A stretch of 64,000 nt of DNA from an uncultured Thermoanaerobaculia bacterium (GTDB lineage Bacteria > Acidobacteriota > Thermoanaerobaculia > Multivoradales > Multivoraceae), in assembly GCA_951812325.1 (NCBI GenBank), contig OX638294.1, positions 1,278,859 to 1,342,858 on the forward strand. The letters are read 5' to 3'. Positions 12,504 to 36,483 of the stretch are shown piece by piece. The notes beneath the pieces were generated by a model. It searched no databases. It was not told where the DNA came from and saw only the letters and a list, made by a program, of their open reading frames with translations. A program made the position numbers and the translations under genes. Each line of letters begins with the position of its first letter. Within the stretch, counting starts at the first letter, position 1.

Positions 12504-12759
12504 AAACCGCTTACTCTACTCGCTTTCCGGTCGCTCTTCCGCTCGGGTCGGGCCGATTTCCGCCAGCGTCGCCGGGCTCGGCGCCCTGTAGCGGTAGCGG
12601 TTCGCGAGCAGTTCGCGCTGGAGGTCGGCGTCGAGCCCGGCATCCCGCGGAAACGACTCGGCGATCGTCCTCGCCCCACCGGCGGCTGCCGGCGCGAATG
12701 CGAAGCGTACGTCCATCCCGGCCTCCCCTCTGTCGATTCCGCCCGCGACTGCCTACACT

Positions 12760-13698
12760 ATGCCTCCGAAGGCCCCCGAAGGCCCCCAAGGCCCGCCGGG
12801 ACATGAACGTCCTGCCAACCATCGAGTATCTCCTGTATCTCCTGACTGCATTGTGGACTTTCTTCCAGGCATCGTCGGTTCCTTCGCCGACCCGGCGGCC
12901 GAGAACCCGACGGTGGAGATGGTCGAGGCGGCATTCCGCCATCACGGCCTGCACTGGCGCTACCTGAACTGCGAAGTGCCGCCCGATCTGCTGGCCGACG
13001 CGGTCGCTGGCGCCCGCGCGATGGGCTGGGCAGGCTTCAACTGCTCGCTCCCGCACAAGGTCGCCGTGATCGAGCACCTCGACGGCCTCGGCGAGTCGGC
13101 CCGCCTGATCGGGGCGGTGAACTGCGTCGTCCGTGACGACGAAAGCCGCTTCATCGGCCAGAACACGGACGGCAAGGGCTTCCTCCGCTCCCTCGAGGAG
13201 ATCACGCCAGCGGCCGGAAAGCGGGCGTTGATCTTCGGCGCCGGCGGCGCCGCGCGGGCGATCGCGGTGGAACTCGCCCTGGCTGGGGCCAGCTCGATCA
13301 CTGTCGTCAATCGGACGAGCGAACGCGGCGAGGAACTCGCGGCCCACATCGGCAGCCACACCGCGACCCGCGCCCGGTTCGAACCCTGGCGCGGCGTCTA
13401 CCGGATCGCCGCGGCGGTCGACATCCTGATCAACGCGACCTCGATCGGTCTGTTCCCGCATGTCGACGAGGAACTGCCGTTCGACCCAGGCACGCTCCTG
13501 CCCGCGATGGTGGTCGCCGACGTGATTCCGAATCCCCCGAAGACGCGCCTGCTCCAGGCGGCGGCGAAGCGCGGCTGCACGGTGCTCGACGGCCTCGGCA
13601 TGCTGGTCAACCAGGGAGTCGACGGGATCCGCTACTGGACGGGAGTCGACGTCGACCCTCGGGTCATGCGAGCCCGCCTGGAGGCGATCTTCGGCTGA
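12760..13698 (+). CDS. aroE: Shikimate/quinate dehydrogenase family protein (AroE-like); start uncertain (ATG 12760 or GTG ~12853)
   Basis: NTDGKGF...ALIFGAGGAARAIAVELALAGASSITVVNRTSERGEEL (NADP-binding GAGGA Rossmann) and the substrate-domain N/D motifs of the AroE family. Confidence 0.75.
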   Translation: MPPKAPEGPQGPPGHERPANHRVSPVSPDCIVDFLPGIVGSFADPAAENPTVEMVEAAFRHHGLHWRYLNCEVPPDLLADAVAGARAMGWAGFNCSLPHKVAVIEHLDGLGESARLIGAVNCVVRDDESRFIGQNTDGKGFLRSLEEITPAAGKRALIFGAGGAARAIAVELALAGASSITVVNRTSERGEELAAHIGSHTATRARFEPWRGVYRIAAAVDILINATSIGLFPHVDEELPFDPGTLLPAMVVADVIPNPPKTRLLQAAAKRGCTVLDGLGMLVNQGVDGIRYWTGVDVDPRVMRARLEAIFG

Positions 13699-17633: not shown

Positions 17634-17823
17634 GATCCCCTCTCCATCATTCCGACCTCCCCGCATCTGACGGCAACTGGTGAACGACAGATTGTGACAC
17701 GCGTCCCCGGCCGAATCGGCCCGGGTCGGGCCGATCCCGTCGTTGCCATTGACTTACGCCCTGTTCCCGCTTAGAGTCAGGAAGACGAGCGCGAGCCCCG
17801 ATGCCGGGGGGAGCGGAGACGCG

Positions 17824-18558
17824 ATGGCCGACCACAGCACGATCGAATGGACCGATGCCACCTGGAACCCCGTGATCGGCTGCACCAGGGTCAGCGCCGG
17901 CTGCGCCCACTGCTACGCGGAACGGTTCACCGAACGGTTCCGCGGCGTACCCGGGCACCCCTTCGAGCACGGCTTCGACCTTCGTCTCGTGCCGGCCCGG
18001 CTCGATCAGCCGCGACGCTGGCGGCGGCCGCGCCGTATCTTCGTCAACTCGATCAGCGATCTCTTCCATCCGAACGTCCCGGAAACCTACATCGCCGAGG
18101 TCGGCCACGTCATGCGCGATGTCGAGCGGCATACCTACCAGGTCCTGACCAAACGCCACGACCGGATGCGTCGTCTCCTGGCCGGAGAACTCTCCTGGAT
18201 GGGAGACCTGCCGAACGTCTGGTTCGGAGTCAGCGTCGAGAACCGCCGCCAGGGCCTGCCGCGGCTGGACGCCCTCCGCGCGACGCCGGCCGCCGTCCGG
18301 TTCGCCTCCATCGAACCGCTACTCGAGGACCTGGGCGACTTCGACCTCAGCTCCATCGACTGGGTCATCGCCGGCGGCGAGAGCGGCCCCGGCGCCCGCC
18401 CGATGCGCGAGGACTGGGTTCTGGGCATCCTCCATCAATGCCGCCGCCAGGGTGTGCCGTTCTTCTTCAAGCAATGGGGCGGCGTCCGCAAGAGCCGCAA
18501 CGGCCGTCTGTTGCAGGGCAGGACCTACGACGAGATTCCCGGGCAACTGGCCGGTTGA
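17824..18558 (+). CDS. Three-Cys-motif protein of the phage Gp37/Gp68 family (PF07505/DUF5131), copy A, 244 aa from ATG 17824
   Basis: MADHSTIEWTDATWNPVIGCTRVSAGCAHCYAERF... (C-x6-C-x2-C). ~80% identical to the minus-strand copy at 35591..36316. Confidence 0.8.
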   Translation: MADHSTIEWTDATWNPVIGCTRVSAGCAHCYAERFTERFRGVPGHPFEHGFDLRLVPARLDQPRRWRRPRRIFVNSISDLFHPNVPETYIAEVGHVMRDVERHTYQVLTKRHDRMRRLLAGELSWMGDLPNVWFGVSVENRRQGLPRLDALRATPAAVRFASIEPLLEDLGDFDLSSIDWVIAGGESGPGARPMREDWVLGILHQCRRQGVPFFFKQWGGVRKSRNGRLLQGRTYDEIPGQLAG

Positions 18559-18575
18559 AGTCAGGGTCAGGGGCG

Positions 18576-18815
18576 ATGAGTCAAGAACGCTTCGGCGGCA
18601 GCTGGACCAGGACGAAGCTCAACGTCCTGCAGCAATACCTGCAGGCGTACACGACCGCCCTCAAGAACCAGCCCTTTCGACTCTGGTACGTCGACGCCTT
18701 CGCAGGAACCGGCACCGTTCATCTGACTTCGGTCCGAGACTCCTTGCAGAGTCCGCGGAGCTCAAACTCGTGCAAGACGTCCATCGCCCTCCGCCGCAAG
18801 TTCCGTCGTTGCTAG
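18576..18815 (+). pseudogene. Truncated N-terminal fragment (80 aa) of the three-Cys-motif partner protein TcmP
   Basis: MSQERFGGSWTRTKLNVLQQYLQAYTTALKNQPFRLWYVDAFAGTGTV... aligns with the N-terminus of the full-length partner at 34483..35577 (WKGYGPFQQVKHELIDAYLKAW...VVYFDTHAGRGSY), then terminates after 80 codons. Confidence 0.6.
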
Positions 18816-18894
18816 CGCCAGCATCCGTGTCCAGTTCTCTTGACGAGACTCTAGCAGCCGCAGCCCTCCGGCCTGGCCGGATAGAGTCGCGGCA

Positions 18895-22195: not shown

Positions 22196-22257
22196 TCGCC
22201 GGGCGCGCCTGCGGTCTCCTTGGCTCGCACGGCTACGACCCGCTACGCTCGCGCCAA

Positions 22258-25200
22258 GTGACGCCCCACGCGACGACTTCGTCAACCTACGGCGACGAAC
22301 TCCCGGAACACGACCCGGAGGTCGGTCAACTCGTCCATGTCCGTAGCCGCCGCTGGCTGGTCGAGCACGTCCGGCCCGGCGAGAGGCCCGGCGAATCCTC
22401 GATCGTCCGCCTCGCCTGCGCCGAAGACGACGCCCAGGGCGAGGAGATCGAGGTCTTCTGGAAGGTCGAGATCGACCGGCGCATCCTGAAGCAGGAAGGC
22501 TGGGGCGAACTCGCCGCGAGAGGCTTCGACACGCCGCCCCGGTTCGCCGCCTTCCTCCACACGCTGCGCTGGAACTGCGTCACCGCCACCGACCCCGACC
22601 TGTTCCAGGCGCCCTTCCGTGCCGGCATCAAGCTGGACGCCTACCAGATGGAGCCGCTGCGCAAGGCGCTCCGAATGCCGCGGGTCAACCTCTTCATCGC
22701 CGACGACACCGGCCTGGGGAAGACGATCGAGGCCGGCCTGATCGCCCGCGAACTCCTGCTCCGCAAGAAGGTCCGGACGATCGTCGTCTCCGCGCCGAGT
22801 TCCGTCCTCGAACAGTGGCAGGCCGAGATGGAGGAGCGCTTCGGACTGCTGTTCGAGATCCTCGACCGCGCGTACTTCACCCGCATTCGGCGCGAGCGCG
22901 GCTTCGGCGTCAACCCCTGGAAGACCCACAGCCGCTTCCTGGTCTCCCACAACCTGCTCCGGGATCCGACGTACGCCGATCCGATGCGGGCCTGGCTCGG
23001 CCCGGTGCTCCGCGGCAGCCTGTTTATTCTCGACGAAGCACACCACGCGGCGCCTTCGAGCGGCGGACGATACGGCATCGAGTCGAAGTTCACTCGCGCG
23101 ATTCGGGACCTGAGCCACCGCTTTGAGCACCGCCTCTTCCTCTCCGCGACGCCGCACAACGGCCACTCGAACAGCTTCTCCACCCTCCTGGAGCTGCTCG
23201 ACCCCCATCGATTCACACGCGGCGTCGGCGTACGCAGCGAGTCGCTGGATGCGGTCATGGTGCGCAGGCTCAAGGAGGACATCCGCGAAGTCCAGGGCGG
23301 GTTCCCGCAGCGCAACGTCGTGCCCGTCCGAATCGACAATCTGCCCGCCAATCAGCCGGAGCTCGAACTGTCTCGTCTGCTCGACGAGTATCGGACGGCC
23401 CGCGCTGAGAGATTCAGGAAGGCGACCAGCAGCGTCCAGGCTGCCTCCGGCCTGCTCGTCGTCGGCCTGCAGCAGCGCCTGCTGTCGTCCATCGAGGCGT
23501 TCGCGGTCAGCCTGCGGACCCACCGCCAGACGGTCGCTCGGCAGCGCGACCAGGAACTCCAACAACAGGCCGGCGCCGCCACGACCACCCGCGCCAGGAC
23601 GGAAGCTCAACTCTTCGTCTCGGCATCCGGGGCAACCGGCGCCGACGGCGACCAGGAGGACGAAGCAGCGTGGACCTCGGAGGAAGCCGAACGGGAAGAA
23701 GCGCGCCAGATCGAGACGATCACCGCCGCGACGGAAGCCGCCGCGACCTCGCTCGTTGGCGCCGCAACCGCCGAAGCGCCGGACGAGAGGCTCTGGCTAC
23801 GCGAGAAGGCCCTCCTGGACCGCATGGAGCAGGTCGCCGCGCAAGCCCGTGGCCGGCCCGACGCCAAGACGCGCCGCCTCGTCGACTGGATTCGCGAGAA
23901 CCTCTGCCCCGACCTCCCGCCGCTCGGAACGGCGTTGCCGCCAGGTACGCCGCCACCGCGCTGGAACAACCGGCGGCTGCTGATCTTCACGGAGAACCGC
24001 GTGGGCACGAAGCGCTACCTCCGCAACATGCTGGAGAGCGCCATCGCCTGCTCCGACCGAGCCGAGAATCGCATCGTCACCATCGACGGCCACACCCGCG
24101 GCGCCGCCCGGCGCGAGATCCAGCGCCGGTTCAACGCCGAGCCCGAAAACGACCCGCTGCGCATCCTCCTGGCGACCGACGCCGCCCGCGAGGGACTGAA
24201 CTTCCAGGCCCACTGCACGGACCTGTTCCACTTTGACCTGCCATGGAATCCCGGCCGCATCGAGCAGCGGAACGGTCGCATCGACCGGAAGCTCCAGCCG
24301 GCCAGCGAAGTCAACTGCCACTACTTCGTTCTGCCTCAGCGGGCCGAGGACCGCGTACTGGAGGTCCTCGTCGAGAAGACGGAGACGATCCGAAAGGAAC
24401 TCGGAAGCCTGTCCAGGGTGATCGACGACCGGATCGAACGTCGCCTGAAGAGCGGCGGCATACCCCACGGCACGGTCGACCGACTCGCGGCCCGGATCGC
24501 GGCAGCCGATCTCCAGGTCGAGCGCAAACGCGTCGCCGCCGAGGAACTGGAGAGCGCCCGCCAGCGCCGAAGCGACCTCCAGGGCCAGATCAACCGCTGC
24601 CAGACCCTGCTCCAGAACTCGCGAAAGTGGGTTCAGTTCGACGTCGAGCCGTTCCGGGATGCACTTTCCTGTTCACTCGAGCTGCTGGGCGCAAAGCCGC
24701 TGCAAGCGACGCGGAACGAGAGGCGCGAAACGAGGTGGACCTTCCCCGCCCTCGACGGCCAGACCTCCGCCGACCCCACCTGGGCACGTACGCTCGACTC
24801 CCTGCGCCGGCCGCGGCGGCGCAATCAGAAGCTCACCGACTGGCGCAAGGAGGAGCCGCCCCGCCCCATCGTGTTCGAAGACGCCGGCGTACTGACCGAC
24901 GAGACGGTCCACCTGCATCTCGAACAACGGGTAGCGCAGCGGCTCCTCGCGCGCTTTCGCTCCCAGGGCTTCCTTCACCACGACTTGTCGCGCGCCTGTC
25001 TCGCCCAGGCCGTCGACTCGATCCCCAGAGTCGTCCTTCTCGCCCGGCTGTCTCTCTACGGCAGCGGCGCCGAGCGCCTGCACGAGCAGGTCATCACCGT
25101 GGCCGCCCGCTGGGTCGAGCCGTCGCGCCGCACGGCGCCGCTTAAGGCCTACGCCCGTCACGCGGAACAACGGACGCTCGACCTGCTTGAAGTGTCCCTT

Positions 25201-25635
25201 GCCGGAACGAGTGGACGACCGGTGAACGAGGTGGTAGCGCAGAGGCTCCTGAACGCCGCAGCGCGCGACATCGAGGAACTGCGTCCTCAGCTCGAACCAC
25301 GAAGCCGGGAACTCGCCGCAGTCGCGACGAAGCGGCTCCAGGAGCGCGGCGAGCGAGAGTCTCGTGAACTGCGCGCGATTCTGAAACAGCAGCGCCAGCG
25401 GGTCCGCGACGAACTGCAACTGAGAGACAACCAGTTCGTTCAGCGCACACTCGCCTTCAACCGCGGCGAAGAGCGGCAGTTGCGGGCCGACATGCGTTCC
25501 TGGCGCACGCGACTGGAGCAATTCGACTGCGACTTGGAGCACGAACCCCAACGCATTCGCAACTTCTACGAGGTCCGCGTAGCGCCGCCCGTCGAACCGC
25601 TGGGCATCGTCTACCTATGGCCGGAGACGAACTGA
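22258..25635 (+). CDS. drmD: SNF2-family helicase, DISARM drmD-like (~1125 aa; start tentative GTG 22258)
   Basis: SNF2 N-terminal motifs LDAYQMEPL, ADDTGLGKTIEAG, DEAHHAA, SATPHNG. Helicase C motifs LLATDAAREGLNFQ...FDLPWNPGRIEQRNGRIDR. Long C-terminal coiled-coil extension. Directly upstream of the methyltransferase. Confidence 0.8.
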   Translation: MTPHATTSSTYGDELPEHDPEVGQLVHVRSRRWLVEHVRPGERPGESSIVRLACAEDDAQGEEIEVFWKVEIDRRILKQEGWGELAARGFDTPPRFAAFLHTLRWNCVTATDPDLFQAPFRAGIKLDAYQMEPLRKALRMPRVNLFIADDTGLGKTIEAGLIARELLLRKKVRTIVVSAPSSVLEQWQAEMEERFGLLFEILDRAYFTRIRRERGFGVNPWKTHSRFLVSHNLLRDPTYADPMRAWLGPVLRGSLFILDEAHHAAPSSGGRYGIESKFTRAIRDLSHRFEHRLFLSATPHNGHSNSFSTLLELLDPHRFTRGVGVRSESLDAVMVRRLKEDIREVQGGFPQRNVVPVRIDNLPANQPELELSRLLDEYRTARAERFRKATSSVQAASGLLVVGLQQRLLSSIEAFAVSLRTHRQTVARQRDQELQQQAGAATTTRARTEAQLFVSASGATGADGDQEDEAAWTSEEAEREEARQIETITAATEAAATSLVGAATAEAPDERLWLREKALLDRMEQVAAQARGRPDAKTRRLVDWIRENLCPDLPPLGTALPPGTPPPRWNNRRLLIFTENRVGTKRYLRNMLESAIACSDRAENRIVTIDGHTRGAARREIQRRFNAEPENDPLRILLATDAAREGLNFQAHCTDLFHFDLPWNPGRIEQRNGRIDRKLQPASEVNCHYFVLPQRAEDRVLEVLVEKTETIRKELGSLSRVIDDRIERRLKSGGIPHGTVDRLAARIAAADLQVERKRVAAEELESARQRRSDLQGQINRCQTLLQNSRKWVQFDVEPFRDALSCSLELLGAKPLQATRNERRETRWTFPALDGQTSADPTWARTLDSLRRPRRRNQKLTDWRKEEPPRPIVFEDAGVLTDETVHLHLEQRVAQRLLARFRSQGFLHHDLSRACLAQAVDSIPRVVLLARLSLYGSGAERLHEQVITVAARWVEPSRRTAPLKAYARHAEQRTLDLLEVSLAGTSGRPVNEVVAQRLLNAAARDIEELRPQLEPRSRELAAVATKRLQERGERESRELRAILKQQRQRVRDELQLRDNQFVQRTLAFNRGEERQLRADMRSWRTRLEQFDCDLEHEPQRIRNFYEVRVAPPVEPLGIVYLWPETN

Positions 25636-25693
25636 TGAGCGGCGTGCGACAGGTGGCAGGGTTCGCGTCATCAGCACGGCGCCGCCCGTAGCG

Positions 25694-28600
25694 ATGCCGA
25701 AGCTCGACGCGAACACAAGAGCCCACCTCGAGTGGCTCGGCTTCGTCCGGCCGACCGGCCTCGTGGTGTCGCCGCCGGCGCTCAACAAGGCCGGCGCCGT
25801 GCTGGAACGGGCCGATCGGGAGGGCCAGCGGCTGCTTCGCGACGCGGTATCCGAGCGGGAGTTCAAGCCCGGCGAAGGTCGCCAGCCCTGGCTGCCCGCC
25901 TTCGAGGACTTCGCCCGCTCGGTCCTCGGCTGGCGCTTCTCTCCCGAGGGCTACGCGGGCGGGAGCGCGGCGCCGATTCCCGACGAACTGAGCCTTCACC
26001 TTCCGGACTGCGGCGAGACCCTGAGACCCGACTTCGCGGTCCGCGAACGAAGCCCGAACGAGGATGGCTCGCGCTGGCAACTGCTCGTGCAGACCGTCGA
26101 ACCGGGCCTGAGCTTCGACCGCGCGGTCTCCGGCGCCGGCAAGCTGGAAGCCTCCCCGCACAGCCGCATGGAACGCCTTCTGCGAGCGAAGGCGGTTCCC
26201 GCCGGGCTGCTGTTCAACGGCCGCGCCTTGCGCCTCGTCTCGGCGCCGCGCGGCGAGACTTCCGGCTGGACCGACTTCCAACTCGCCGACATGCTGCTTG
26301 TGGCGGGCCGCCCGATCTGCACCGCCCTGCGCCTGCTCCTGAACGAGCAGCGGCTGCTCGCCTTGCCCAGGCGCCAACGACTGGCCGCGCTCCTGGCGGA
26401 CAGCCGCAAGTACCAGAACGAGGTCAGCGAACGCCTGGCCGAGCAGGTCCTGCATGCCCTCTACGAACTGCTGCGCGGCTTCCAGGCGGCGCACGACGCG
26501 TCGAGAAAGGAACTCCTGGGCGACCAGTTGCGCGAGGATCCGGGCGGCATCTACCACGGCCTTCTCACCGTGGTGCTGCGCCTGGTTTTCCTGCTCTACG
26601 CCGAAGAGCGCGATCTCCTCTCCGAAGAGGCAACCTTCGTCCGCCACTACTCCCTGGCCAGTCTCCACGACCGGCTGCGGGCCGACGCGGCGCTCCACCC
26701 CGACACGATGGACCAGCGCTACGGCGCCTGGGCCCAGTTGCTGGCGCTGTTTCGCATGATCCACAACGGCGCCGCAGCCGCCGACCTCCGCCTTCCGCCC
26801 CGGCACGGCGTGCTCTTCGATTTCGACCGCTTTCCGTTCCTGGAAGGTCGGCCCCCGGGAAGCGTGGCCCAGAACCACGAGCGCGTCGCGGCGCCGCTCG
26901 TGTCCGACGGCACGGTCCATCGCGCTCTGGAGAAGCTCCTCGTGCTCGACGGCGACCGCCTCTCCTACCGCGCGCTGGACGTCGAGCAGATCGGCTCCGT
27001 CTACGAAACGATGATGGGCTTCCGCCTCGAACGCGCCGAGGGACCTTCGTGCGCGATCAAGCCAGCCAAAAGGCACGGCGCGCCCGCCACGGTGAACCTG
27101 GCAGCGCTGCTCGAAAAACCAGTCGATCGGCGCGTCCGCTGGTTTCGCGAACGGACCGACCGCAGGCTGACCGACAAGGCCGCGAAGGCGCTACGGAACG
27201 CCCGGACGATCGACGAACTTCACGCCGGCCTCGACCGCGTGATCGACCGCGCCGCGACCCCCGACCTGGCGCCGAAGGGCCACATGATCCTCCAACCGAG
27301 CGATGAACGCCGACGCTCGGGCTCGCACTACACGCCGCGCGAACTCACCGAACCGATCGTCCGGGACACCCTGGAACCGATCCTCGACCGGCTGCGAGAG
27401 CAAGCCGCGGGAAGCGCGGGCCAGGAACCGGCAACACCGCCAGACCTGTCGGCGCCCGCTGAACACGGATCGCGAGTACGTAGCCCACGTCATCAGGGAC
27501 CGGCAACAGCGCCCGACCTGTCGGCGCGCGGGCCTTCCGGCCCGCATCCAGCTCCGACGACAAAAGCGCCTCGGCCGGAACAGATCCTCGGACTCAAGGT
27601 CTGCGACCCGGCGATGGGCTCCGGCGCCTTCCTCGTCGAATCCTGCCGTCAACTCGGCGACGCCCTGGTCGACTCCTGGCACGCCCACGACGCGGCGCCG
27701 CCCATCCCGCCCGACGAAGACGAAGCCGTCCACGCCCGGCGTCTCGTCGCCCGCAACTGCCTCTACGGCGTGGATCGGAACGCCGTCGCCGTGGACCTGG
27801 CGAAGCTCTCGCTCTGGCTGACGACGCTCGCCAGGGACCATCCCCTGACGTTCCTCGACCACGCGCTTCGCCACGGCGATTCCCTGGTCGGCCTGGCGCC
27901 GGAACAGATCCAGGCCTTCCACTGGAAGGGCAAGGAGAAGCGCTTCCAGGCCGGCATCGAGACGACCTGGATTCGAGAGCAGGTCGAGAAGGCGTTGCGC
28001 CTGAGACGGGCGATCCAGGAGGCGCGCGACGACACGCCGGACTGGGTACTGCGCGATCGGCTGGACCAGGCGGAGGACGAACTGGCTCGGGTCAAGCGGA
28101 ACGGCGACCTCGTCGTTGCGGCCTTCTTCGAACGCCAGAAGCCCGGCGAGCGTGAAGCCCTGCGCCGGTCGTTCGCCGCCGAACTTCAGTTCGAGACTGC
28201 GAGCGGCTCAGGGGGCAAGCCATCGTCCCGGCCGGGCGAAGACGAACAAGCATCCGTTCCGGCTTCCGTCTCGGGTCACTCCGGCAGTTCCGGCAGCATC
28301 CGCGCCTCCCCCTCGAACGCGATCTCGACGATCGGTTGGCTGGAGGAATTCCGAAACGGCGACCCGCCACTGGCGCCGTTTCACTGGGCAATCGAGTACC
28401 CCGAGGTCTTCCTGCTTGAAGAGCGCGAGAATTCCGGCTTCGACGCGGTCGTGGGGAACCCGCCGTTCGCCGGCAAGAACACGATCGGCAACGCGAACGT
28501 ACCGGGCTACAAGGCTTGGCTGAAGCAGCTCCACGAAGAAAGCCACGGCAACGCGGACCTTGTCGCCCACTTCTTCAGGCGCGCGTTCACGCTGGTTCGC

Positions 28601-29977
28601 GAAGGCGGCGCCTTCGGCCTGATCGCCACGAACACGATCGCCCAGGGCGACACGCGCTCGACCGGATTGCGCTTCATCTGCAAGCACGGCGGGGAGATCT
28701 TCCGCGCCCGAAGACGGGTCAAGTGGCCCGGTCTGGCCGCCGTCGTCGTCAGCGTCGTGCATCTGCACCGCGGTCCCTGGCATGGTCCGCGGATGCTCGA
28801 CGGCGTGACGCAACCGAAGATCACGGCCTTCCTGTTTCACCGCGGCGGGCACGAGGATCCTGCGCGGCTCACCGAGAACGCCGGCAAGAGCTTCCAGGGC
28901 AGCATCGTCCTCGGCATGGGTTTCACCTTTGACGACACGGACACGAAGGGCGTGGCGACGCCGCTTGCCGAGATGAACCGCCTGATCGAACAGGACCCGA
29001 AGAACCGGGAGGCGATCTTCCCGTACATCGGCGGTAAAGAGGTCAACGCCAGTCCGATTCACGCTCACCATCGGTACGTCATCAACTTCCACGACTGGCC
29101 GCTGCGCCGCGAGGACCGCGGTGACCGAAGCCAGCGCTGGGCAACCGCTCCGAAGGAGCAACGCAAACAGTGGCTGCGCGAAGGAGGCGTGCCGGTCGAC
29201 TATCCGGATCCGGTTGCGGCGGACTGGCCGGAGCTGCTGGCGATCGTTGAGGAGCGGGTCAAGCCTGAGAGAGCCGAGAAGAACGACGCCGTGGCCAGGA
29301 GGCTATGGTGGCAGTTCCTTCGGCCCCGCCCGGAACTCCAGGGTGCCATCGCCGGCCTCGACCGCGTGTTGGCGATCTCGCGCGTCACCCAGCATGTGGG
29401 TTTCGCCTACCTACCAGCCGGCAAGGTCTATGCCGACCGTCTCATCATCTTCCCCTCCCCCACCCACGCCGCGTTCTGCGCCCTCCAGTCCCGCCCCCAC
29501 GAACTCTGGGCGCGCTTCTTCGGTTCCTCTCTGGAGGACCGACTCACGTACACGCCCTCCGACTGCTTCGAGACCTTCCCCTTCCCAGAGAACTGGGAGA
29601 CTCACTCCGACCTTGAAGTCGCCGGCGCCGCGTACCACGGTTTCCGAGCCGACCTGATGCTCCGGAGCGACGAGGGCCTGACGAAGACGTACTACCGCTT
29701 TCATGACCCCGAGGAGCAGAGTTCGGGCATCACCCGGCTCCGCGAGCTCCACTCGGCCATGGACCGTGCCGTCCTCGCCGCCTACGGCTGGACCGACATC
29801 GGCACGGCCTGCGAGTTCCTCCTCGACTACGAGATCGACGAAGAGACCTGGGGCAAAAGGAAGAAGCCCTACCGCTACCGCTGGCCCGACGAAGTCCGCG
29901 ACGAGGTGCTCGCCCGCCTCCTCGAACTCAACGCCCAACGCGCCGCCGAGGAGAAGCGCAGCGGTTCCCGCCGATGA
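25694..29977 (+). CDS. drmMI: Eco57I/PglX-type N6-adenine DNA methyltransferase, DISARM drmMI-like (1427 aa)
   Basis: HYTPRELTEPIV (motif X), ILGLKVCDPAMGSGAFLVE (motif I), NCLYGVDRNAVAVDLAKLSLWL, VVGNPPFAGK (motif IV NPPF), C-terminal KKPYRYRWPDEVRDEVLARLLELN typical of this family. Confidence 0.85.
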   Translation: MPKLDANTRAHLEWLGFVRPTGLVVSPPALNKAGAVLERADREGQRLLRDAVSEREFKPGEGRQPWLPAFEDFARSVLGWRFSPEGYAGGSAAPIPDELSLHLPDCGETLRPDFAVRERSPNEDGSRWQLLVQTVEPGLSFDRAVSGAGKLEASPHSRMERLLRAKAVPAGLLFNGRALRLVSAPRGETSGWTDFQLADMLLVAGRPICTALRLLLNEQRLLALPRRQRLAALLADSRKYQNEVSERLAEQVLHALYELLRGFQAAHDASRKELLGDQLREDPGGIYHGLLTVVLRLVFLLYAEERDLLSEEATFVRHYSLASLHDRLRADAALHPDTMDQRYGAWAQLLALFRMIHNGAAAADLRLPPRHGVLFDFDRFPFLEGRPPGSVAQNHERVAAPLVSDGTVHRALEKLLVLDGDRLSYRALDVEQIGSVYETMMGFRLERAEGPSCAIKPAKRHGAPATVNLAALLEKPVDRRVRWFRERTDRRLTDKAAKALRNARTIDELHAGLDRVIDRAATPDLAPKGHMILQPSDERRRSGSHYTPRELTEPIVRDTLEPILDRLREQAAGSAGQEPATPPDLSAPAEHGSRVRSPRHQGPATAPDLSARGPSGPHPAPTTKAPRPEQILGLKVCDPAMGSGAFLVESCRQLGDALVDSWHAHDAAPPIPPDEDEAVHARRLVARNCLYGVDRNAVAVDLAKLSLWLTTLARDHPLTFLDHALRHGDSLVGLAPEQIQAFHWKGKEKRFQAGIETTWIREQVEKALRLRRAIQEARDDTPDWVLRDRLDQAEDELARVKRNGDLVVAAFFERQKPGEREALRRSFAAELQFETASGSGGKPSSRPGEDEQASVPASVSGHSGSSGSIRASPSNAISTIGWLEEFRNGDPPLAPFHWAIEYPEVFLLEERENSGFDAVVGNPPFAGKNTIGNANVPGYKAWLKQLHEESHGNADLVAHFFRRAFTLVREGGAFGLIATNTIAQGDTRSTGLRFICKHGGEIFRARRRVKWPGLAAVVVSVVHLHRGPWHGPRMLDGVTQPKITAFLFHRGGHEDPARLTENAGKSFQGSIVLGMGFTFDDTDTKGVATPLAEMNRLIEQDPKNREAIFPYIGGKEVNASPIHAHHRYVINFHDWPLRREDRGDRSQRWATAPKEQRKQWLREGGVPVDYPDPVAADWPELLAIVEERVKPERAEKNDAVARRLWWQFLRPRPELQGAIAGLDRVLAISRVTQHVGFAYLPAGKVYADRLIIFPSPTHAAFCALQSRPHELWARFFGSSLEDRLTYTPSDCFETFPFPENWETHSDLEVAGAAYHGFRADLMLRSDEGLTKTYYRFHDPEEQSSGITRLRELHSAMDRAVLAAYGWTDIGTACEFLLDYEIDEETWGKRKKPYRYRWPDEVRDEVLARLLELNAQRAAEEKRSGSRR

Positions 29978-30121
29978 GAAGCCGGGACCGCCCCAGGTCC
30001 AGGGCCGATCACGTCGCGGGCCCGCTTTGCAGTCACCGCTGCCCGTGTGAGAGAGTTGTCCGCAGCAAGCCGACCGGCCCACCAGCGCCGACTCCTCCCC
30101 CACCTTCCCGCGCACCCCGCC

Positions 30122-31117
30122 ATGACTAGCGGCAAGCTCTTGCGCCAACTCATCGTCTCGGGCGCCGATGGCGACCTCGCTGCATTCCGTGCCGCCGCGG
30201 ACGACGTGATCGCCGACGAGCGGCAGAAGCAACACCACCTCCTGGCGAACGACCTCGAGTCCATTCTCTATGGCCGCACTCTCGCTCCCACGTCGCCTGG
30301 CCTGCGGAGGCTCGCCCAGGCGGTGCCCGAAGATCGAGAGCGTGGTTTGGCCTTGCTGTCACTGCGCGAGCCCGTCCGTGGAATGGAGGACGTTGTTCTC
30401 TCAAGCTCAAACCGCACCATCGTCCGGGCCGTCCTTCACGAGCAGAACCGCGAGGAACTGCTTCAAGCGCACGGGCTCCGGCCCGTCGATCGTCTCCTGT
30501 TGTGCGGACCGCCCGGCTGCGGCAAGACGCTGACCGCAGAGGTCATCGCAAATGAGCTCGGCAGACCTCTCGCCATCGTCCGGGTCGACAGCGTCGTGTC
30601 TTCTTTCCTCGGTGAAACCGCAGCCAATCTACGTCGCGTCTTTGACTTCATCGAAACGACGCCGACAGTAGCAGTCTTCGACGAGTTCGACGCCTTGGGC
30701 AAGGAGCGGGACGACTCCTCGGAACACGGCGAGCTGCGCCGGGTTGTCAACGCGGTGCTGCAGATGCTTGACGCATACGACGGCCGCAGCCTCATCGTCG
30801 CCGCCACCAATCACCAATCCATGCTCGACTCGGCCGTCTGGCGCCGTTTTGAGGAGATCCTCTATCTGAGGCTGCCGACCGCAACGCAGATTCGGGAGCT
30901 CCTCCGCGTCAAGCTGCGCGGCGTACGCCGAGCCTTCGACATCGACACGGTCGCCGTTGAGTCGCTCTTCCCTAATAGTACGCACGCCGACGTCGAGCGC
31001 GTGCTTCGCCGAGCCGTCAAGGAAATGGTCCTGAGCGGTGAAGGTCGCCTTGGCCTGAACCACATCCGCGGGGCCGTGCGCCGAGAGAAGGCGCGGCGTC
31101 AACCTGGGCGCATTTGA
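30122..31117 (+). CDS. ietA: AAA+ ATPase, IetA-like (332 aa from ATG 30122)
   Basis: LLCGPPGCGKT Walker A, VAVFDEFDAL Walker B, AATN sensor 1. Immediately followed by an S8 peptidase gene (IetAS architecture). Confidence 0.75.
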   Translation: MTSGKLLRQLIVSGADGDLAAFRAAADDVIADERQKQHHLLANDLESILYGRTLAPTSPGLRRLAQAVPEDRERGLALLSLREPVRGMEDVVLSSSNRTIVRAVLHEQNREELLQAHGLRPVDRLLLCGPPGCGKTLTAEVIANELGRPLAIVRVDSVVSSFLGETAANLRRVFDFIETTPTVAVFDEFDALGKERDDSSEHGELRRVVNAVLQMLDAYDGRSLIVAATNHQSMLDSAVWRRFEEILYLRLPTATQIRELLRVKLRGVRRAFDIDTVAVESLFPNSTHADVERVLRRAVKEMVLSGEGRLGLNHIRGAVRREKARRQPGRI

Positions 31118-31126
31118 GTCAGGCCA

Positions 31127-33490
31127 TTGCAGCAGCGCCTCTTCGACCACACACAAATGCGCCCGCACCTGCGCCTCAACCGAGAGCGACCAACCACGGA
31201 GCGCCGCCGGCCTGGCGGATTCCCTCCTTCCCCGCCTCCGCCACAGGATCCGCAGGTCCACGGAGCCTCGCTGCACCAGAAACTGCGTTCCGCACGCGAA
31301 AAGGCCGCCGCGGCTCTCGGCGGCTACGACCAGCGACGATTGATCAAGCTCAAGCTGGCAACGCAAGTATCGCCGGAGGCTCTCGCCCGGATTTCGCCCG
31401 GGATGGAGGCAGTAAGCCAGGAGGGCGAGAAGCTGATTCTCTACTTTGCGACCGACGATGCGCTGGAGACGTTTGAGGCGAAACTCTCAAGTCTCAGCCA
31501 GGGCGAGGCGGTAACGCGCAAGGACCTGCTCTACGCTCTCAGCGACATCGATCATTGGAGCGAGGACGACCGCACTGGCCGGAGCCTCAAGCAGCACGGT
31601 CTGCCACCGGGCAAATCGGTAACGCTCGATGTGGAGCTATGGCCGTTGGACAGCCCGCAGGCCCCAACGCTTGCCACTTTCTCCGAGTGGTTGAAGGAAC
31701 GTGGCGGCAAGGTCCTGGACAAGGTGAAGAAGGCCTACCTTGTGCTGTGCCGTGTCCGTTGCGACCGCGCTGTTGCCAGCGACCTGCTTCGACACCGGGA
31801 CGTTCGCACAATCGAACTTCCTCCGCGTCTGGCCCTGCCCCGGGAGATTCTCAGCGCCGATGTCCAGAACATTCCCGAGGTTGAAGCGCCACTGACCGAT
31901 GCACCCGCTATCGTGGTTCTCGACTCCGGCCTCGCTTCCGGACACCCTCTGCTCGCACCCGCCGTGGGAGATTCCCAGAGCTTCCTGCCGGGCAGGTCGG
32001 CAGCCGACGAACACGGCCACGGTACGCTGGTCTCGGGCATCGCCCTGTACGGCGACGTAGCGAAAGGACTGCGCGCCCAGAACCTTGTCCCGGAACTGCG
32101 TCTCTTCAGCGGACGGATACTGGACGAAAAGAACCAGAGCAACGAGCCCCTCGTCGAGAACCAGATCGAAGACGCGGTCCGCTACTTCGCGGATCACTAC
32201 GGCTGCCGCGTGTTCAACCTCTCCTACGGCGATCCCAACAGGTCCTACGAAGGCGGCAGGATCACGGGCCTTGCTGTGACGCTGGATGCGCTGAGTCGAG
32301 AACTCGGTGTGCTGTTCGTTGTACCCACCGGCAACTACGAAGGCGGCCCTGCGGGGCCGGGAGACTGGCGAGAAGACTACCCTGACTATTTGTCTGAGTC
32401 GAGTGCCCGCCTTCTCGACCCGGCCCCCGCCTTGAATGCCCTCACCGTCGGAAGTCTGGCACGTTGGGAGAAAACGATTCAGGCCGAAAGCTATTCAGAC
32501 GATCCCGCCTACCAGCCCATAGCGCGAACCGACGAACCGTCCCCGTTTACCAGAAGCGGCCCTTCGGTGAGAGGCGCGATCAAACCGGATCTCGTCGACT
32601 ACGGTGGCAATCGAGCCGTTGATCTGCGGACGGGAAGCGAACTCACCGTCGGCAGGGCCGGCATCGGCGAACGCTCGACATCTCGCGACTTCGCGGCCGG
32701 CTCGCCATTCGCCGAGGGCTGCGGAACAAGCTTCGCCGCTCCGCGAGTCGCGCATGTTGCCGCGCGCCTGCTGAGGGAGCTTCCAGGCGCAAGCGCCAAT
32801 CTCTGCCGCGCTCTCCTCGTCGCGCACGCGCGGACTCCGCTCGCCTGCGCTGAGCTCTTCTCAGATGACCGCGCCGCCCTCCGCCGAATCACCGGCTACG
32901 GTCTGATCGACCGCTCCGCTCTCTACCGTTCGCCCGACGATTGCGTCTCGCTCTGGGCGACGGAGTCGATGACCAACAATCGGCACCACTTCTACGAGCT
33001 GCCGGTCCCGGATGAGTTCTGGTCTTCAGGTCGCCGCGAGCGGAGGATCACCGTTGCTCTTGCCTACTTTCCCGCTGTGAGGACGACGCGCATCGACTAC
33101 CGCGCGGCGAAAATCAGCTTCAAGTTGGTACAGGCTCAGTCGCTCGACGAAGTCGCCAGCTGGTTCAGCGCGGTGGAAGACAATCCGGGAGCAGCACCGG
33201 TTGCCGAGCTGCCCACGGGAAGGAACATCACGGAGCAAAACCGCTCAAAGGGAACAGTGCAGGCTTCGAGTTGGACCTTTACTGTAGCGAACCGATCCAG
33301 AAAGGAAGGAGCCTGGTTCGTGGTCGTCACGCGCAACGATCCCGCGTGGGGGCAGAACATCTCCAACGAACATGAAGAATACGCTCTCGTAGCCACGATC
33401 GCGGATCGGCAATTTGCCGAGGCGCGACTCTATTCGCAGATCCAGGTCAGACTCCGACAACGCGCTCGAGCTCGAGCGAGCGACCGTTGA
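31127..33490 (+). CDS. ietS: Subtilisin-like S8 serine peptidase, IetS-like (787 aa)
   Basis: Catalytic triad motifs VVLDSG (Asp), HGHGTLVSG (His), GTSFAAPRVAH (Ser). Large N- and C-terminal non-catalytic domains. Confidence 0.8.
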   Translation: MQQRLFDHTQMRPHLRLNRERPTTERRRPGGFPPSPPPPQDPQVHGASLHQKLRSAREKAAAALGGYDQRRLIKLKLATQVSPEALARISPGMEAVSQEGEKLILYFATDDALETFEAKLSSLSQGEAVTRKDLLYALSDIDHWSEDDRTGRSLKQHGLPPGKSVTLDVELWPLDSPQAPTLATFSEWLKERGGKVLDKVKKAYLVLCRVRCDRAVASDLLRHRDVRTIELPPRLALPREILSADVQNIPEVEAPLTDAPAIVVLDSGLASGHPLLAPAVGDSQSFLPGRSAADEHGHGTLVSGIALYGDVAKGLRAQNLVPELRLFSGRILDEKNQSNEPLVENQIEDAVRYFADHYGCRVFNLSYGDPNRSYEGGRITGLAVTLDALSRELGVLFVVPTGNYEGGPAGPGDWREDYPDYLSESSARLLDPAPALNALTVGSLARWEKTIQAESYSDDPAYQPIARTDEPSPFTRSGPSVRGAIKPDLVDYGGNRAVDLRTGSELTVGRAGIGERSTSRDFAAGSPFAEGCGTSFAAPRVAHVAARLLRELPGASANLCRALLVAHARTPLACAELFSDDRAALRRITGYGLIDRSALYRSPDDCVSLWATESMTNNRHHFYELPVPDEFWSSGRRERRITVALAYFPAVRTTRIDYRAAKISFKLVQAQSLDEVASWFSAVEDNPGAAPVAELPTGRNITEQNRSKGTVQASSWTFTVANRSRKEGAWFVVVTRNDPAWGQNISNEHEEYALVATIADRQFAEARLYSQIQVRLRQRARARASDR

Positions 33491-33775
33491 CCAATATGCC
33501 GCCCTCAACCTCGCCCTTCCCGTTCAACCGCCACCGTCTCGCCGCCTCTGATCTTCTCGGAGTCCGTTCCGGCACAACATCGAGGCCCGGGCCGACAAGC
33601 GCGGGCAAGTGACGGCGTTCATTTTCGACAGCCTGACCGTCATGCCGCGCCCCGTCCCCCACAGCGAACTCAAGAGGCTGGATTGCGTCGGTCCCGCGAA
33701 CTACGTTGCGGCAGAACCGATTTCACACGATCAACTCCTGAGGATCGTTCAGGCGGGCTTCGGAGAATCGGGCTC

Positions 33776-34264
33776 ATGATCGACATCCTCATGTCGATCA
33801 AGCCGCCGTACGTCGACATGATCGTCTCCGGCTCCAAGACGGTCGAGATCCGGAAGCGAGCTGTCCGGGTACCAGCCGGAGCAAGAATCTGGATCTACGC
33901 AACCAGTCCACGGCGGCAGGTAGTCGCATCCGCCCGGCTCGAAGAAGTCGCCCTCGACACGGGGGGCGAGATCTGGCGCACCTTCGGCGACCGGGCCGGC
34001 ATCGACCGCCTCGACTTCAACGCCTACGTTGGAGACAGCAGACTCGTCGCCGCACTATCCCTGACCGACGTCACCGCACTCGCCGCGCCACTATGCCCTC
34101 GCAGCGAGACGCCGGCATTCCGCCCGCCGCAGTCCTACTCGTTCCTTCGTGATGCCGAACTTCTGGCAGCCTTGGAGGCAAGGCATAGCACAGAGCGTTC
34201 AGCAGACGAGAACCAGATCAGTCCTCCGGCGCAACCAACCGAAACGGCCTTCGCAACCCCGTAG
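33776..34264 (+). CDS. ASCH (PUA-like) domain protein, ~162 aa from ATG 33776
   Basis: MIDILMSIKPPYVDMIVSGSKTVEIRKRAV...IWIYAT matches the ASCH beta-barrel N-terminus. Confidence 0.6.
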   Translation: MIDILMSIKPPYVDMIVSGSKTVEIRKRAVRVPAGARIWIYATSPRRQVVASARLEEVALDTGGEIWRTFGDRAGIDRLDFNAYVGDSRLVAALSLTDVTALAAPLCPRSETPAFRPPQSYSFLRDAELLAALEARHSTERSADENQISPPAQPTETAFATP

Positions 34265-34482
34265 ATCGGGCCGTGGACTCCCGGTCCACGAGGTCCGGCG
34301 CAACTCCTCACGCTCCGCCGTCGTGCTACCGTCGCTCCGACAGCCATCGTCCCCCGGTCCGCCTGGGCCACACAGTTGCGGATCGACTGCGCTGCCGGCT
34401 CGAACTCGCGAGCCAGTTGGTCCGGGGTTGACTGCCGAGATCTTTTCGAACAATGAAGCCGCTGGAAATTCCAAGAAACTCC

Positions 34483-35577
34483 CTAATGAAACAAGGCCTC
34501 CTGCTTCGGGAGAAGCGACAGTGAGCCTCCGCGCCGCCTGAGCCGCTTTTGCTGCTTTAGTTCCGCCTCTACATCTCCAAGGTGCTTCCACCTCCAGATC
34601 TTCGAGCGCAGCTCCTCCTTCAGGACGTCCCTCAAGACCGGCCCCGCCTGGAGCCTGGCCACCAACCACTGACGCAGCGGCGCCAGATCGGGCTTCTCTT
34701 CGATCAAAAGGAACTGGTTCGGGTTCTCGGATCGCCGCACGCTCATGCTGCCGCCGGGGCAAACCGTCCAGACACACTCCTTCATCAGGTCCCGTCCGTC
34801 ATCGTGATTCGTCAGATGGAGCAGAAAGAAGCGCACCGCATCGCCACCCGAGACCATCCGCACATGGGTCCACCACTTCGCGCCTACTCGATCAGCCAGC
34901 AGCTTCGCGCCCTGGTCGGCCCTCTCAACCATCGTTTCGCCCCGGATGTTCCGCCACGCATCGCCTCCGAAGAGCCGGTCGAGATTCTCGGCCTGACCGT
35001 GTCCAGCTTTGAGCTCCTGGTGCATCGCCATGTCGAGTTCGCGCCACATCACGTTGACGAAGAGCTCGACGCGCTCAAACTCCATGATCTCCGCGAGCAG
35101 GTCGCCCGGCAAACTGAAGCCATACGGATCCACGAAGAAAAAGGCAGGCGCCATTTGTTGACCCGCTGACTTCAGGGCATCGACCCCCCGGCGCAACACC
35201 TCGAACGCGTCGCCCGGCTCGACATCGACGACGATCCGGCGGGGCAGATCTTCAATCCGCTCAACCTCTCCCCTCAGCTCGGACGCATTCTGTTCATCCA
35301 GCTCCAGAAACACGAACCGGAACTCGGAGTTCTCCAAGAGCTGGTCTCTCGCCGTGTGGTCAAGCAGCGTCCTCAGCGCCACGAGTGGCGAACCGGGATT
35401 GTCGCCTGCATAGCTACCACGCCCGGCGTGAGTGTCGAAGTACACGACTTTGCCGGACCACAAGCCGAGTTTGGGAAACCAGGCTTTCAGGTAGGCGTCA
35501 ATCAGCTCGTGCTTGACCTGCTGGAAAGGACCGTAGCCTTTCCAATGATCCGGCCGTGGATCGCCGACTCCGTTCAC
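34483..35577 (-). CDS. Three-Cys-motif partner protein TcmP (full length, ~364 aa), probable GTG start at 35575-35577, 12 nt after the upstream gene's stop
   Basis: N-terminus HWKGYGPFQQVKHELIDAYLKAW...VVYFDTHAGRGSYAG and FFFVDPYGF motif. Located directly downstream of the Gp37/Gp68 gene (the pairing that defines this family). Confidence 0.7.
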   Translation of the reverse strand: MNGVGDPRPDHWKGYGPFQQVKHELIDAYLKAWFPKLGLWSGKVVYFDTHAGRGSYAGDNPGSPLVALRTLLDHTARDQLLENSEFRFVFLELDEQNASELRGEVERIEDLPRRIVVDVEPGDAFEVLRRGVDALKSAGQQMAPAFFFVDPYGFSLPGDLLAEIMEFERVELFVNVMWRELDMAMHQELKAGHGQAENLDRLFGGDAWRNIRGETMVERADQGAKLLADRVGAKWWTHVRMVSGGDAVRFFLLHLTNHDDGRDLMKECVWTVCPGGSMSVRRSENPNQFLLIEEKPDLAPLRQWLVARLQAGPVLRDVLKEELRSKIWRWKHLGDVEAELKQQKRLRRRGGSLSLLPKQEALFH

Positions 35578-35590
35578 AGCCCTCGGGTCC

Positions 35591-36316
35591 TCAGTTCGCC
35601 GGGAACTCGTCGTAAGTCCTACCCTTGAGCAGGCGCCCATTCAGATGCTTCCGCGGCCCTCCCCACTGCTTGAAGAAGAAGGGGACGTCATCTCGCCGGC
35701 ACTGAAGCAGGACATTGATCACCCACGCTTCCAGCATGGGCCGCGCTCCGGGACCGCTCTCGCCGCCGACGATGACCCAGTCGATGCCCGTCAGGTCGAA
35801 CTTCTCCAGATCCTCAAGGAGCGGTTCGATTGAGGCAAAGCGAACCGCTGCCGGCGTCTGCCGTAACGCCTGCAGCCGCGGCAAGCCCTGCCGTCGGTTC
35901 TCGACGCTCACTCCAAACCAGACGTTCGGCAACTCACCCATCCAGGAAAGAGGCCCCACAAGAAGCTCGTGCATTCGCTCGTGTCTCTTCGTGAGCACCT
36001 GGTAGGTGTGCCGCTGGACTTCGCTCATCACCCGGCCCACCTCGGCGATGTAGCTCACGGGAACCTGCGGATGGAAGAGGTCGCTCATCGAGTTCACGAA
36101 CACGCGGCGAGGCAGACGCCAGCGACGCGGCTGATCGAGCTTGGCCGGTACCAGGCGAAGGTCGAAACCCTGCTCGAAGGGGTGCCTCGGGACGCCACGG
36201 AAGCGCTCCGAGAAGCGCTCTGCGTAGCAATGTGCGCAGCCTGCACTGACCTTCGTGCAGCCGAGCACCGGGTTCCAGGTCGCGTCGGTCCATTCGATCG
36301 GACTCTTCTCTGACAT
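35591..36316 (-). CDS. Three-Cys-motif protein of the phage Gp37/Gp68 family (PF07505/DUF5131), copy B, 241 aa
   Basis: MSEKSPIEWTDATWNPVLGCTKVSAGCAHCYAERF...FFFKQWGG. Full-length paralog of copy A. Confidence 0.85.
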   Translation of the reverse strand: MSEKSPIEWTDATWNPVLGCTKVSAGCAHCYAERFSERFRGVPRHPFEQGFDLRLVPAKLDQPRRWRLPRRVFVNSMSDLFHPQVPVSYIAEVGRVMSEVQRHTYQVLTKRHERMHELLVGPLSWMGELPNVWFGVSVENRRQGLPRLQALRQTPAAVRFASIEPLLEDLEKFDLTGIDWVIVGGESGPGARPMLEAWVINVLLQCRRDDVPFFFKQWGGPRKHLNGRLLKGRTYDEFPAN

Positions 36317-36483
36317 GCAGGCTCTCCAGGTGCCGGGCCTAACGCATCGCCAAGCCCAGCCCGTTATACAGGATCATGCATGAAAGCGCAAATCGGGCGT
36401 AAACGGAGCCGCACCATCTTCACCCGTCAACCTCGACCAACTCTGGCCTTTTCGCTTCACTATCCGCCTGCGCTCGGGCCGAA

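Follow-up and report, generated by a model that had tools for sequence, protein, structure and literature searches.

DUF5131 proteins (Pfam PF07505, Gp37/Gp68) and TcmP proteins (NCBIfam TIGR04474) make up the two-gene modules PDC-M30 and PDC-M41, which PADLOC carries as phage-defence candidates (PDC) derived from a guilt-by-embedding survey (Payne et al. 2024, bioRxiv 10.1101/2024.01.29.577857). The 145 candidates of that survey were described as untested, and 96.7% of the embedded genes were co-oriented (Payne et al. 2024, bioRxiv 10.1101/2024.01.29.577857). RadicalSAM.org places DUF5131 in a subgroup of its own, Megacluster-5-2, within the same megacluster as spore photoproduct lyase (PMC9477430). 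Apart from this listing, the literature retrieved for DUF5131, PF07505 and TcmP comprised only mentions in annotation tables. The two DUF5131 genes considered here, with their TcmP partners, lie in a stretch of 64,000 nucleotides (nt), hereafter the window, from the genome of an uncultured Thermoanaerobaculia bacterium (assembly GCA_951812325.1, contig OX638294.1, positions 1,278,859 to 1,342,858). Related loci and proteins are referred to by L and P numbers, respectively.

The best reading of the window, with a probability of about 0.8, is that it holds two old paralogous cassettes of this module, of which cassette A is native, relocated and half-decayed, and cassette B was imported within an island of the DISARM (defence island system associated with restriction-modification) type. 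An earlier note, made from the DNA letters alone, had treated the first DUF5131 gene as a diverged second copy of a complete pair and had raised decay, partner-independent function and inversion of the intervening DNA. The decay reading is supported, and the duplication and inversion readings are not. The module is already known as an uncharacterised candidate defence pair.

Two cassettes of one two-gene module

DUF5131-A (244 amino acids, aa) is encoded at 17824..18558 on the plus strand and DUF5131-B (241 aa) at 35591..36316 on the minus strand, which confirms both open reading frames (ORFs) where the earlier note had placed them, in inverted orientation ~17 kb apart. Each contains a full-length DUF5131 domain above the PF07505 cut-off of 28.9 bits, with 322.1 bits over residues 5-239 for DUF5131-A and 314.8 bits for DUF5131-B, and they match the PADLOC profiles PDC-M41B (330.8 bits) and PDC-M30B (326.9 bits), respectively. 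The proteins are 80% identical (193/241, no gaps), as had been noted; the figure of ~80% that had also been given for the DNA is too high, the identity being 76% over 723 ungapped nt, with 87%, 90% and 52% at the three codon positions. A repeat search returned the pair 17824-18539 and 35601-36316 as an inverted repeat of 716 nt that is 77% complementary, with its arms 17,061 nt apart, and that is the sole long repeat within 12-46 kb. The longest exact run is 17 nt, and the DNA similarity ends at the start and stop codons of the DUF5131 ORF. Sliding-window comparison gave 63-83% identity throughout and no gene-conversion tract between A and B.

The divergence of the two genes, estimated by the Nei-Gojobori method, amounts to 1.16 synonymous substitutions per site (dS) and 0.136 nonsynonymous substitutions per site (dN), with a dN/dS ratio (omega) of 0.12. 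This dS matches in depth the splits between A-clade and B-clade genes of different genomes, and DUF5131-A differs from its nearest orthologs by a dS of ~0.6. The A clade recovered by a large protein search comprises P0002-P0010 (85-90% aa identity to DUF5131-A) and the B clade P0011-P0023 (84-94% to DUF5131-B), where the closest relatives are P0019 (94%) and P0012 (90%). Each copy has nearer relatives in other genomes (the identity reaches 90% for A, and 94% for B) than its paralog in the window.

A recent duplication within this genome, in which cassette B or its ancestor was copied in inverted orientation and copy A is now decaying, would account for two 80% identical proteins 17 kb apart in the same genome, and it would fit a scan of species-representative genomes that gave no match to A above 73%, below the 80% of B. 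Such an event is nevertheless extremely improbable given the dS of 1.16 and the third-position identity of 52%, the orthologs of A (85-90%) and relatives of B (84-94%) held by other genomes, the conserved chromosomal locus at which the orthologs of A stand with a different TcmP subtype, and the abrupt end of DNA similarity at the ORF boundaries. Given the same dS, the different TcmP subtypes and the closer relatives elsewhere, the description of copy A as a duplicate of the complete pair is not supported. A and B appear from these comparisons to be two old, non-orthologous cassettes of one two-gene module rather than recent duplicates.

The TcmP genes likewise belong to different PADLOC types. 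TcmP-B, at 34483..35577 on the minus strand and 13 nt from DUF5131-B, is a full-length partner with a C-terminal extension; it has 364 aa in the source annotation (P0121), not the 385 aa given earlier. It scores 156.8 bits against TIGR04474 (cut-off 53 bits) over positions 4-262 of the 263 in the profile, and 64.1 bits against PDC-M30A, the long form. The partner of copy A, 17 nt from DUF5131-A, resembles the partners of the A orthologs in matching PDC-M41A, the short form (277-284 aa). Its ORF (18576-18815, 79 aa) falls just under the TIGR04474 cut-off with 52.8 bits, over profile positions 2-44 only (16% of the profile), and matches positions 3-61 of 298 in PDC-M41A at 66.7 bits; the fragment is 28% identical to TcmP-B over 40 aa. 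Thus, cassette B has both components of PDC-M30 side by side, and cassette A has a full B component of PDC-M41 with only a fragment of the A component.

Probable relocation and decay of cassette A

The contexts of A orthologs were examined at seven loci within L081-L097. All seven have the same order, namely a carboxylase-like gene of 1552 aa (minus strand), a gene designated X (~310 aa, minus), DUF5131 (plus) and TcmP (plus); the last encodes 277-283 aa in six contexts and 261 aa in L094, where it is ended by the contig edge. In several of them a shikimate dehydrogenase gene and a sugar ABC operon come next, with variable insertions between, and in L083 the sugar ABC operon is followed by the genes for a dipeptide ABC ATPase, yfcC and MIOX (myo-inositol oxygenase). 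The window is colinear with these loci at 84-94% DNA identity, with two differences. The cassette is absent between the carboxylase gene and the shikimate dehydrogenase gene, and an insert of 1172 bp splits the 84-nt spacer between the binding-protein and dipeptide ABC ATPase genes, replacing 10 nt.

At the ancestral site (12519..12764, minus) three scraps of gene X are left, and DUF5131 and TcmP are gone. The three pieces were aligned by blastn within 12504-12860 at 93-99% identity to L087, L092 and L083, tblastn recovered residues 99-135 and 289-310 of gene X, and the shikimate dehydrogenase gene starts at 12854. A short tandem repeat, CCGAAGGCCCC, present in about three copies, occupies 12765-12800 at the scar of the deleted cassette.

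The insert that carries cassette A now (17703..18874, plus) stands between the sugar-binding protein gene (minus) and the dipeptide ABC ATPase gene (plus). Its borders are sharp, with L083 16305-16416 aligning up to window position 17702 and L083 16427 onward from 18875. At its left end (17716..17736, plus) is a 21-nt scrap that resembles the end of gene X on the 3' side; 20 of these nt are shared with L083 8909-8929 and with the corresponding position in five other loci (E = 0.002), and a 14-nt copy survives at 12544-12557. A predicted sigma-70-like promoter (17749..17777, plus; TTGACT, 17 nt, TAGAGT) follows, the sole promoter-like match in 17600-18950, where 0.1 would be expected by shuffling. 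The promoter block is conserved in alignments upstream of the A orthologs, and it appears to have travelled with cassette A into the insert.

Cassette A is, as judged by synteny, most probably the resident, vertically inherited cassette of the lineage, relocated by ~5 kb. The occurrence of X sequence at both sites points to a duplication of the X-DUF5131-TcmP segment followed by complementary deletions, and the order and mechanism of these events were inferred from the arrangement. A segment that begins in the 3' end of gene X and ends with the stop codon of TcmP would have been copied ~5 kb rightward, into the spacer between the sugar-binding-protein and dipeptide ABC ATPase genes, whether directly (copy-insertion) or through a tandem duplication of 7.5 kb and subsequent reciprocal deletions. 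Later deletions would have erased the original cassette copy and most of X. Within the new TcmP copy ~540 nt would have been removed, and a frameshift and a 2-nt deletion added. The outcome would be an intact, promoter-bearing DUF5131-A beside a dead partner.

At the ancestral locus of the relatives, A-type cassettes adjoin defence-like genes (L095 13250-20741; L092 6940-9327), which encode an SNF2 helicase, a 1748-aa protein of the DEAD/Helicase_C/MZB type and a methyltransferase resembling drmMI. Downstream of the resident cassette, the relatives have a hotspot of variable content, which also includes RelB, TonB receptor and DUF5677 genes. Pfam scans assigned no family to gene X, to the genes of 222 and 251 aa that adjoin TcmP in relatives, or to either TcmP subtype.

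The anatomy of the locus, its synteny, the divergence of its genes and the lesions of the pseudogene can be read directly from the alignments. TcmP-A is a pseudogene with an internal deletion rather than an N-terminal piece truncated by the gene behind it. Its 5' part (18576..18728, plus) retains codons 1 to ~51, among them those for methyltransferase motif I (DAFAGTG), and is 81% identical to residues 2-55 of the L087 TcmP. The 3' remnant (18728..18871, plus), in a different frame, begins with FGPRLLAESAELK at 18728-18766, which corresponds to ortholog residues 236-248 (92% identical to L087), and continues as a degraded tail; ~180 codons (~540 nt) are lacking between the two parts. After FGPRLLAESAELK, DNA alignments with L081, L083, L087 and L095 reveal a further 2-nt deletion and heavy divergence up to the expected position of the stop codon. 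The last ~28 codons of ORF 18576-18815 are out-of-frame TcmP 3' region, with a stop at 18815. The "80-codon N-terminal fragment" of the earlier note is therefore genuine TcmP N-terminus for ~51 codons, and what had passed for a plain 3' truncation is an internal deletion with a frame change. Beyond the remnant at 18728-18766, neither the missing C-terminus of TcmP-A nor extra DUF5131 fragments occur anywhere in the window. What is left of TcmP-A keeps motif I only and cannot form the fold. The suggestion that a once-complete cassette has decayed is supported, as TcmP lies directly downstream of DUF5131 in all seven related contexts.

A sequencing or assembly artefact, with a full-length partner in the real genome, is another conceivable source of the truncation. 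The sequence comes from a single assembly and has no second record, and in five loci from metagenome-assembled genomes (L016, L023, L030, L043 and L075) TcmP is divided between two ORFs, possibly as a result of frameshifts or of indel errors in long reads. An artefact is nonetheless highly improbable for TcmP-A, in which several independent lesions are combined (the ~540-nt deletion, the frame change, the 2-nt deletion and the degraded 3' end) rather than one indel. The same genome has other deletions of ~270-1150 bp relative to a 96-98% identical island in L103 and has also lost sequence at gene X and MIOX relative to its relatives.

DUF5131-A itself may still function without its own partner, either alone, as the earlier note had considered, or with TcmP-B in trans; this is possible, though clearly on the less probable side. 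The ORF is intact and has its own conserved predicted promoter. Its omega of ~0.10 against the orthologs equals the family-wide value, but a pairwise omega averages the whole branch and is blind to recent relaxation. Among 115 conserved columns the protein has three changes, all of them conservative (two K to R, one M to I), which is nevertheless slightly more than in the median homolog (3 vs 1; maximum 5). Its dN to outgroups is only marginally, and inconsistently, above that of the sister orthologs. DUF5131 occurs without detectable TcmP in 12 of the 70 species-level loci that extend at least ~10 kb on both sides; no neighbour family recurs beside these solo genes as a shared alternative partner. 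B-clade DUF5131 genes pair with either TcmP subtype, long in L098 and L099 and short in L100, which suggests that DUF5131-A could use TcmP-B. Against this, partners of the TcmP-A and TcmP-B types are only ~28% identical, and a fused DUF5131-TcmP protein together with near-universal adjacency argues for joint action.

Intact DUF5131 genes also stand beside TcmP remnants in L003 and L004, two closed Vicinamibacterales chromosomes whose DUF5131 is 70-71% identical to copy A. Only C-terminal scraps of a long-type TcmP follow the gene there (L003 10581-10958; L004 10726-10838), and the two are independent cases of partner loss in which the three-cysteine gene was kept. Taken together, the observations on DUF5131-A would fit recent partner loss as well as partner-independent or trans-complemented function.

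Cassette B, its DISARM island and the inverted arrangement

Homology to L083 ends at 22202, just past yfcC, and in L083 MIOX directly follows yfcC. In the window the two are separated by a class 1 DISARM island with embedded cassettes (~22 kb; 22203..44368, plus), whose genes were identified by PADLOC, NCBIfam and Pfam matches. Its right border is marked by a MIOX remnant (44369..44488, minus), in which tblastn with the L083 MIOX recovered residues 4-41 (52% over 40 aa, E = 3e-6). The class 1 genes drmD (22258-25635; PADLOC 998 bits), drmMI (25694-29977; 1298 bits), drmA (38938-42360; 914 bits) and drmB (42357-44204; 271 bits) are all present. Between drmMI and drmA lie IetA/IetS-like genes (30047-33490; NCBIfam), an ASCH gene (33683-34264; Pfam, also PDC-M11B), cassette B, a Phd antitoxin gene (36896-37150; Pfam) and a HEC-01A-like ABC ATPase gene (ORF 37244-38797, PADLOC profile match from ~37600). 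The ORF after drmB has no PLD domain and no DrmC match; a possible drmC scrap at 44296-44352, a 19-aa match to the L100 drmC with E = 0.2, is doubtful. An ORF of 167 aa with a high GC content at third codon positions (44427-44930, plus) overlaps the MIOX remnant on the opposite strand, has no Pfam or PADLOC match and may not be a real gene.

The island is colinear with those of L103 (92-98% identical) and L100 (74-85%). DUF5131 and TcmP are found between drmMI and the drmA operon in four contigs, namely the window, L103, L100 and L013. They are transcribed divergently from the drmA operon in the first three and are fused at that position in L013. In L098 and L099, by contrast, B-clade cassettes occur by themselves, at a lipase/acyl-CoA-dehydrogenase locus. 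Cassette B, of the PDC-M30 type with a long TcmP, would have arrived inside the DISARM island when this was inserted between yfcC and MIOX.

The sequence of cassette B is mosaic. Over a tract of ~1.35 kb (window 34810-36160, L098 10157-11505), which takes in most of TcmP-B and the 3' three-quarters of DUF5131-B, it is 95-97% identical to the stand-alone cassette of L098; outside this tract, the identity is only ~80% in the first ~155 nt of DUF5131-B and 50-65% in the last ~330 nt of TcmP-B. This pattern suggests homologous exchange between cassettes, with one probable breakpoint inside each gene. In L100, a 90-aa internal DUF5131 fragment (1081-1353) at the border of the DISARM island adjoins Phd and lipase genes, which flank the stand-alone B-type cassettes in L098, and it looks as if an island with its own cassette had replaced part of a resident one. 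A remnant of an IS3-type transposase OrfA (window ~36484-36755, minus; HTH_Tnp_1 in the L103 counterpart) lies beside DUF5131-B.

Deletions within the island were mapped with the 96-98% identical L103 island as reference. The window lacks ~270 nt inside drmMI (29109-29148), a ~1.15-kb HNH gene beside DUF5131-B (36418-36453), ~400 nt of a PIN toxin gene (37267/37268), which leaves the Phd antitoxin with a truncated toxin, and ~460 nt of a DUF4276 gene located after that for the HEC-01A-like ATPase (38819/38820). With X, MIOX, drmC and TcmP-A included, accessory genes that have lost a few hundred bases each are a marked pattern of this genome.

The earlier note had the two DUF5131 copies bracket a "17-kb block" and, as inverted repeats, mediate its inversion. 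That block is composite, consisting of 3.3 kb of core genes and the left 14 kb of the 22-kb DISARM island, which extends past copy B to 44.4 kb. Because copy B arrived with the island, the inverted arrangement of A and B is coincidental, and their pairing is without structural meaning.

That the copies are arms of an invertible segment, flipping the block and for example switching the expression of defence genes, is a most unlikely proposition. A 716-nt inverted repeat does exist, DUF5131 genes do recombine over evolutionary time, as illustrated by the 95-97% identical tract of cassette B with a breakpoint inside the gene, and a DUF5131 fragment lies at the island border in L100. Nevertheless, the arms are only 76-77% identical with a longest exact run of 17 nt. 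RecA-type recombination usually needs ~20-30 nt of identity, so the arms are too diverged to recombine efficiently. The ORFs that were scanned in 17-46 kb include no invertase, integrase or recombinase. Relative to the binding-protein gene (minus) on the left flank, the core genes within the block, those for the dipeptide ABC ATPase (plus) and yfcC (plus), keep the ancestral order and orientation seen in L083, and the two DISARM halves, drmD-drmMI and drmA-drmB, are on one strand as in L100 and L103. The absence of A/B gene conversion in the sliding window likewise counts against exchange between the arms. An invertible segment should have near-identical repeats or a recombinase and occur in both orientations; here the arms are 77% identical and the orientation matches that of relatives. 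What the comparisons point to is ordinary gene decay, and nothing in them suggests an invertible DNA switch.

The DUF5131/TcmP module and its known counterparts

Three cysteines (C20, C27 and C30) are invariant in 49 DUF5131 homologs and present in both A and B, with CX6CX2C spacing in the motif GCT(R/K)VSAGCAHC; a GGESG motif is invariant as well. The AlphaFold2 model of DUF5131-B (pLDDT, the predicted local distance difference test, 81.1) has a predicted partial beta/alpha barrel, for which the best Foldseek match is spore photoproduct lyase (4fhg), followed by lipoyl synthase and MiaB. In TcmP, T49-H-A-G-R-G54 (motif I) and the motif-IV-like D150-P-Y152 are invariant. The TcmP-B model (pLDDT 83.7) has as its best Foldseek match RlmJ (6qe5, E = 1.9e-7), an rRNA N6-methyladenosine (m6A) methyltransferase. 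It has 79 PDB matches at E <= 0.001, and the 50 listed are all S-adenosylmethionine (SAM)-dependent or related Rossmann-fold enzymes, nearly all of them methyltransferases. TcmP-B is thus predicted to have a class I SAM-methyltransferase fold with motif I and DPY. At the sequence level, neither DUF5131-B nor TcmP-B has a meaningful match in the PDB.

DUF5131 and TcmP are adjacent in 61 of 80 species loci. Fused proteins were found as P0233 (634 aa) and in L013 (9962-11905, a 647-aa ORF between drmMI-like and drmA-like genes), and such fusion supports functional coupling of the two proteins. The module is very widespread, with more than 580 matches in species-representative genomes, 7880 close metagenome proteins and 181 phage records; all 181 contain DUF5131, and TcmP is detectable in only 12 of them. 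The Gordonia phages Easley (genes 38 and 39; MH155867.1 29191-31052) and Fairfaxidum (NC_048185.1 32942-34853) have DUF5131 beside a convergent TcmP homolog annotated 'methyltransferase'.

The module may carry out SAM-dependent modification or repair of nucleic acid, in defence or self-marking; this inferred role is tentative and rated a little short of even odds. A more specific proposal, that DUF5131/TcmP is a working accessory of this DISARM variant, adding or reading a second nucleic-acid mark, and that the orphan DUF5131-A is kept through pairing with TcmP-B, is unlikely. If it were true, two radical-SAM-like enzymes would be served by one methyltransferase-like partner.

Several points weigh against the reading of the locus as a relocated, half-decayed cassette A and an imported cassette B of such a module. 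A single assembly is the source for both the TcmP-A deletion and the single orientation. Exact-sequence searches with the A and B proteins of the window returned no record, and the TcmP-A deletion junction had 0 matches in two metagenome scans; by cluster look-up the A and B proteins each occur on a single contig. Insertion and tandem duplication are not distinguishable from the data, and with an X scrap of only 21 nt (E = 0.002), duplicative relocation is favoured just modestly over separate acquisition. On the side of the module, the cysteines of DUF5131 are spaced CX6CX2C instead of the canonical radical SAM CX3CX2C, the match of DUF5131-B to 4fhg is weak (E = 4.6e-3, TMq 0.49, 12% identity), and the literature searches found no experimental test of any DUF5131/TcmP pair.

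The structural finding is minor. It illustrates how a conserved two-gene cassette can change place, lose a partner and be worn down by deletions, and it disposes of the inversion switch as a false lead. Of wider interest is the DUF5131 and TcmP module itself, which is widespread and repeatedly embedded in DISARM. This locus and the remnants in L003 and L004 indicate that DUF5131 can outlast its partner under purifying selection, a testable hint as to whether the radical-SAM-like protein is active independently of its partner.

Among known enzymes, the radical SAM superfamily, as represented by spore photoproduct lyase (4fhg), comes nearest to DUF5131. DUF5131 resembles it in the three invariant N-terminal cysteines, has in GGESG a possible counterpart of the GGE-type SAM-binding motif and may have a partial (beta/alpha)6 barrel; it differs in the cysteine spacing and in the weakness of the fold match. 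As for the families, both DUF5131 proteins and TcmP-B pass the PF07505 and TIGR04474 profiles and their genes are adjacent, whereas the TcmP-A fragment remains just below the cut-off with 16% of the profile. The class 1 DISARM genes drmD, drmMI, drmA and drmB are in the usual order; unlike the class 1 type, the window has a doubtful 19-aa scrap for drmC and a locus interrupted by ~9 kb of embedded cassettes. The relocation resembles the model of duplication and reciprocal loss in that one segment survives as scraps at two sites with complementary losses. It departs from that model in that both TcmP and both X copies were lost instead of one each, and in that the duplication would be a reconstructed event.

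The closest counterparts are PDC-M30 and PDC-M41, a name that is a candidate label and not a function. DUF5131-A and DUF5131-B match PDC-M41B and PDC-M30B at 324-332 bits, TcmP-B matches PDC-M30A, and the A fragment and the partners of its orthologs match PDC-M41A. Cassette B is embedded in DISARM, the context from which the candidates were defined, but it lies on the strand opposite to the DISARM genes, in contrast to the 96.7% of embedded genes that are co-oriented. Cassette A differs from both candidates in its non-embedded position and in having no working A component.

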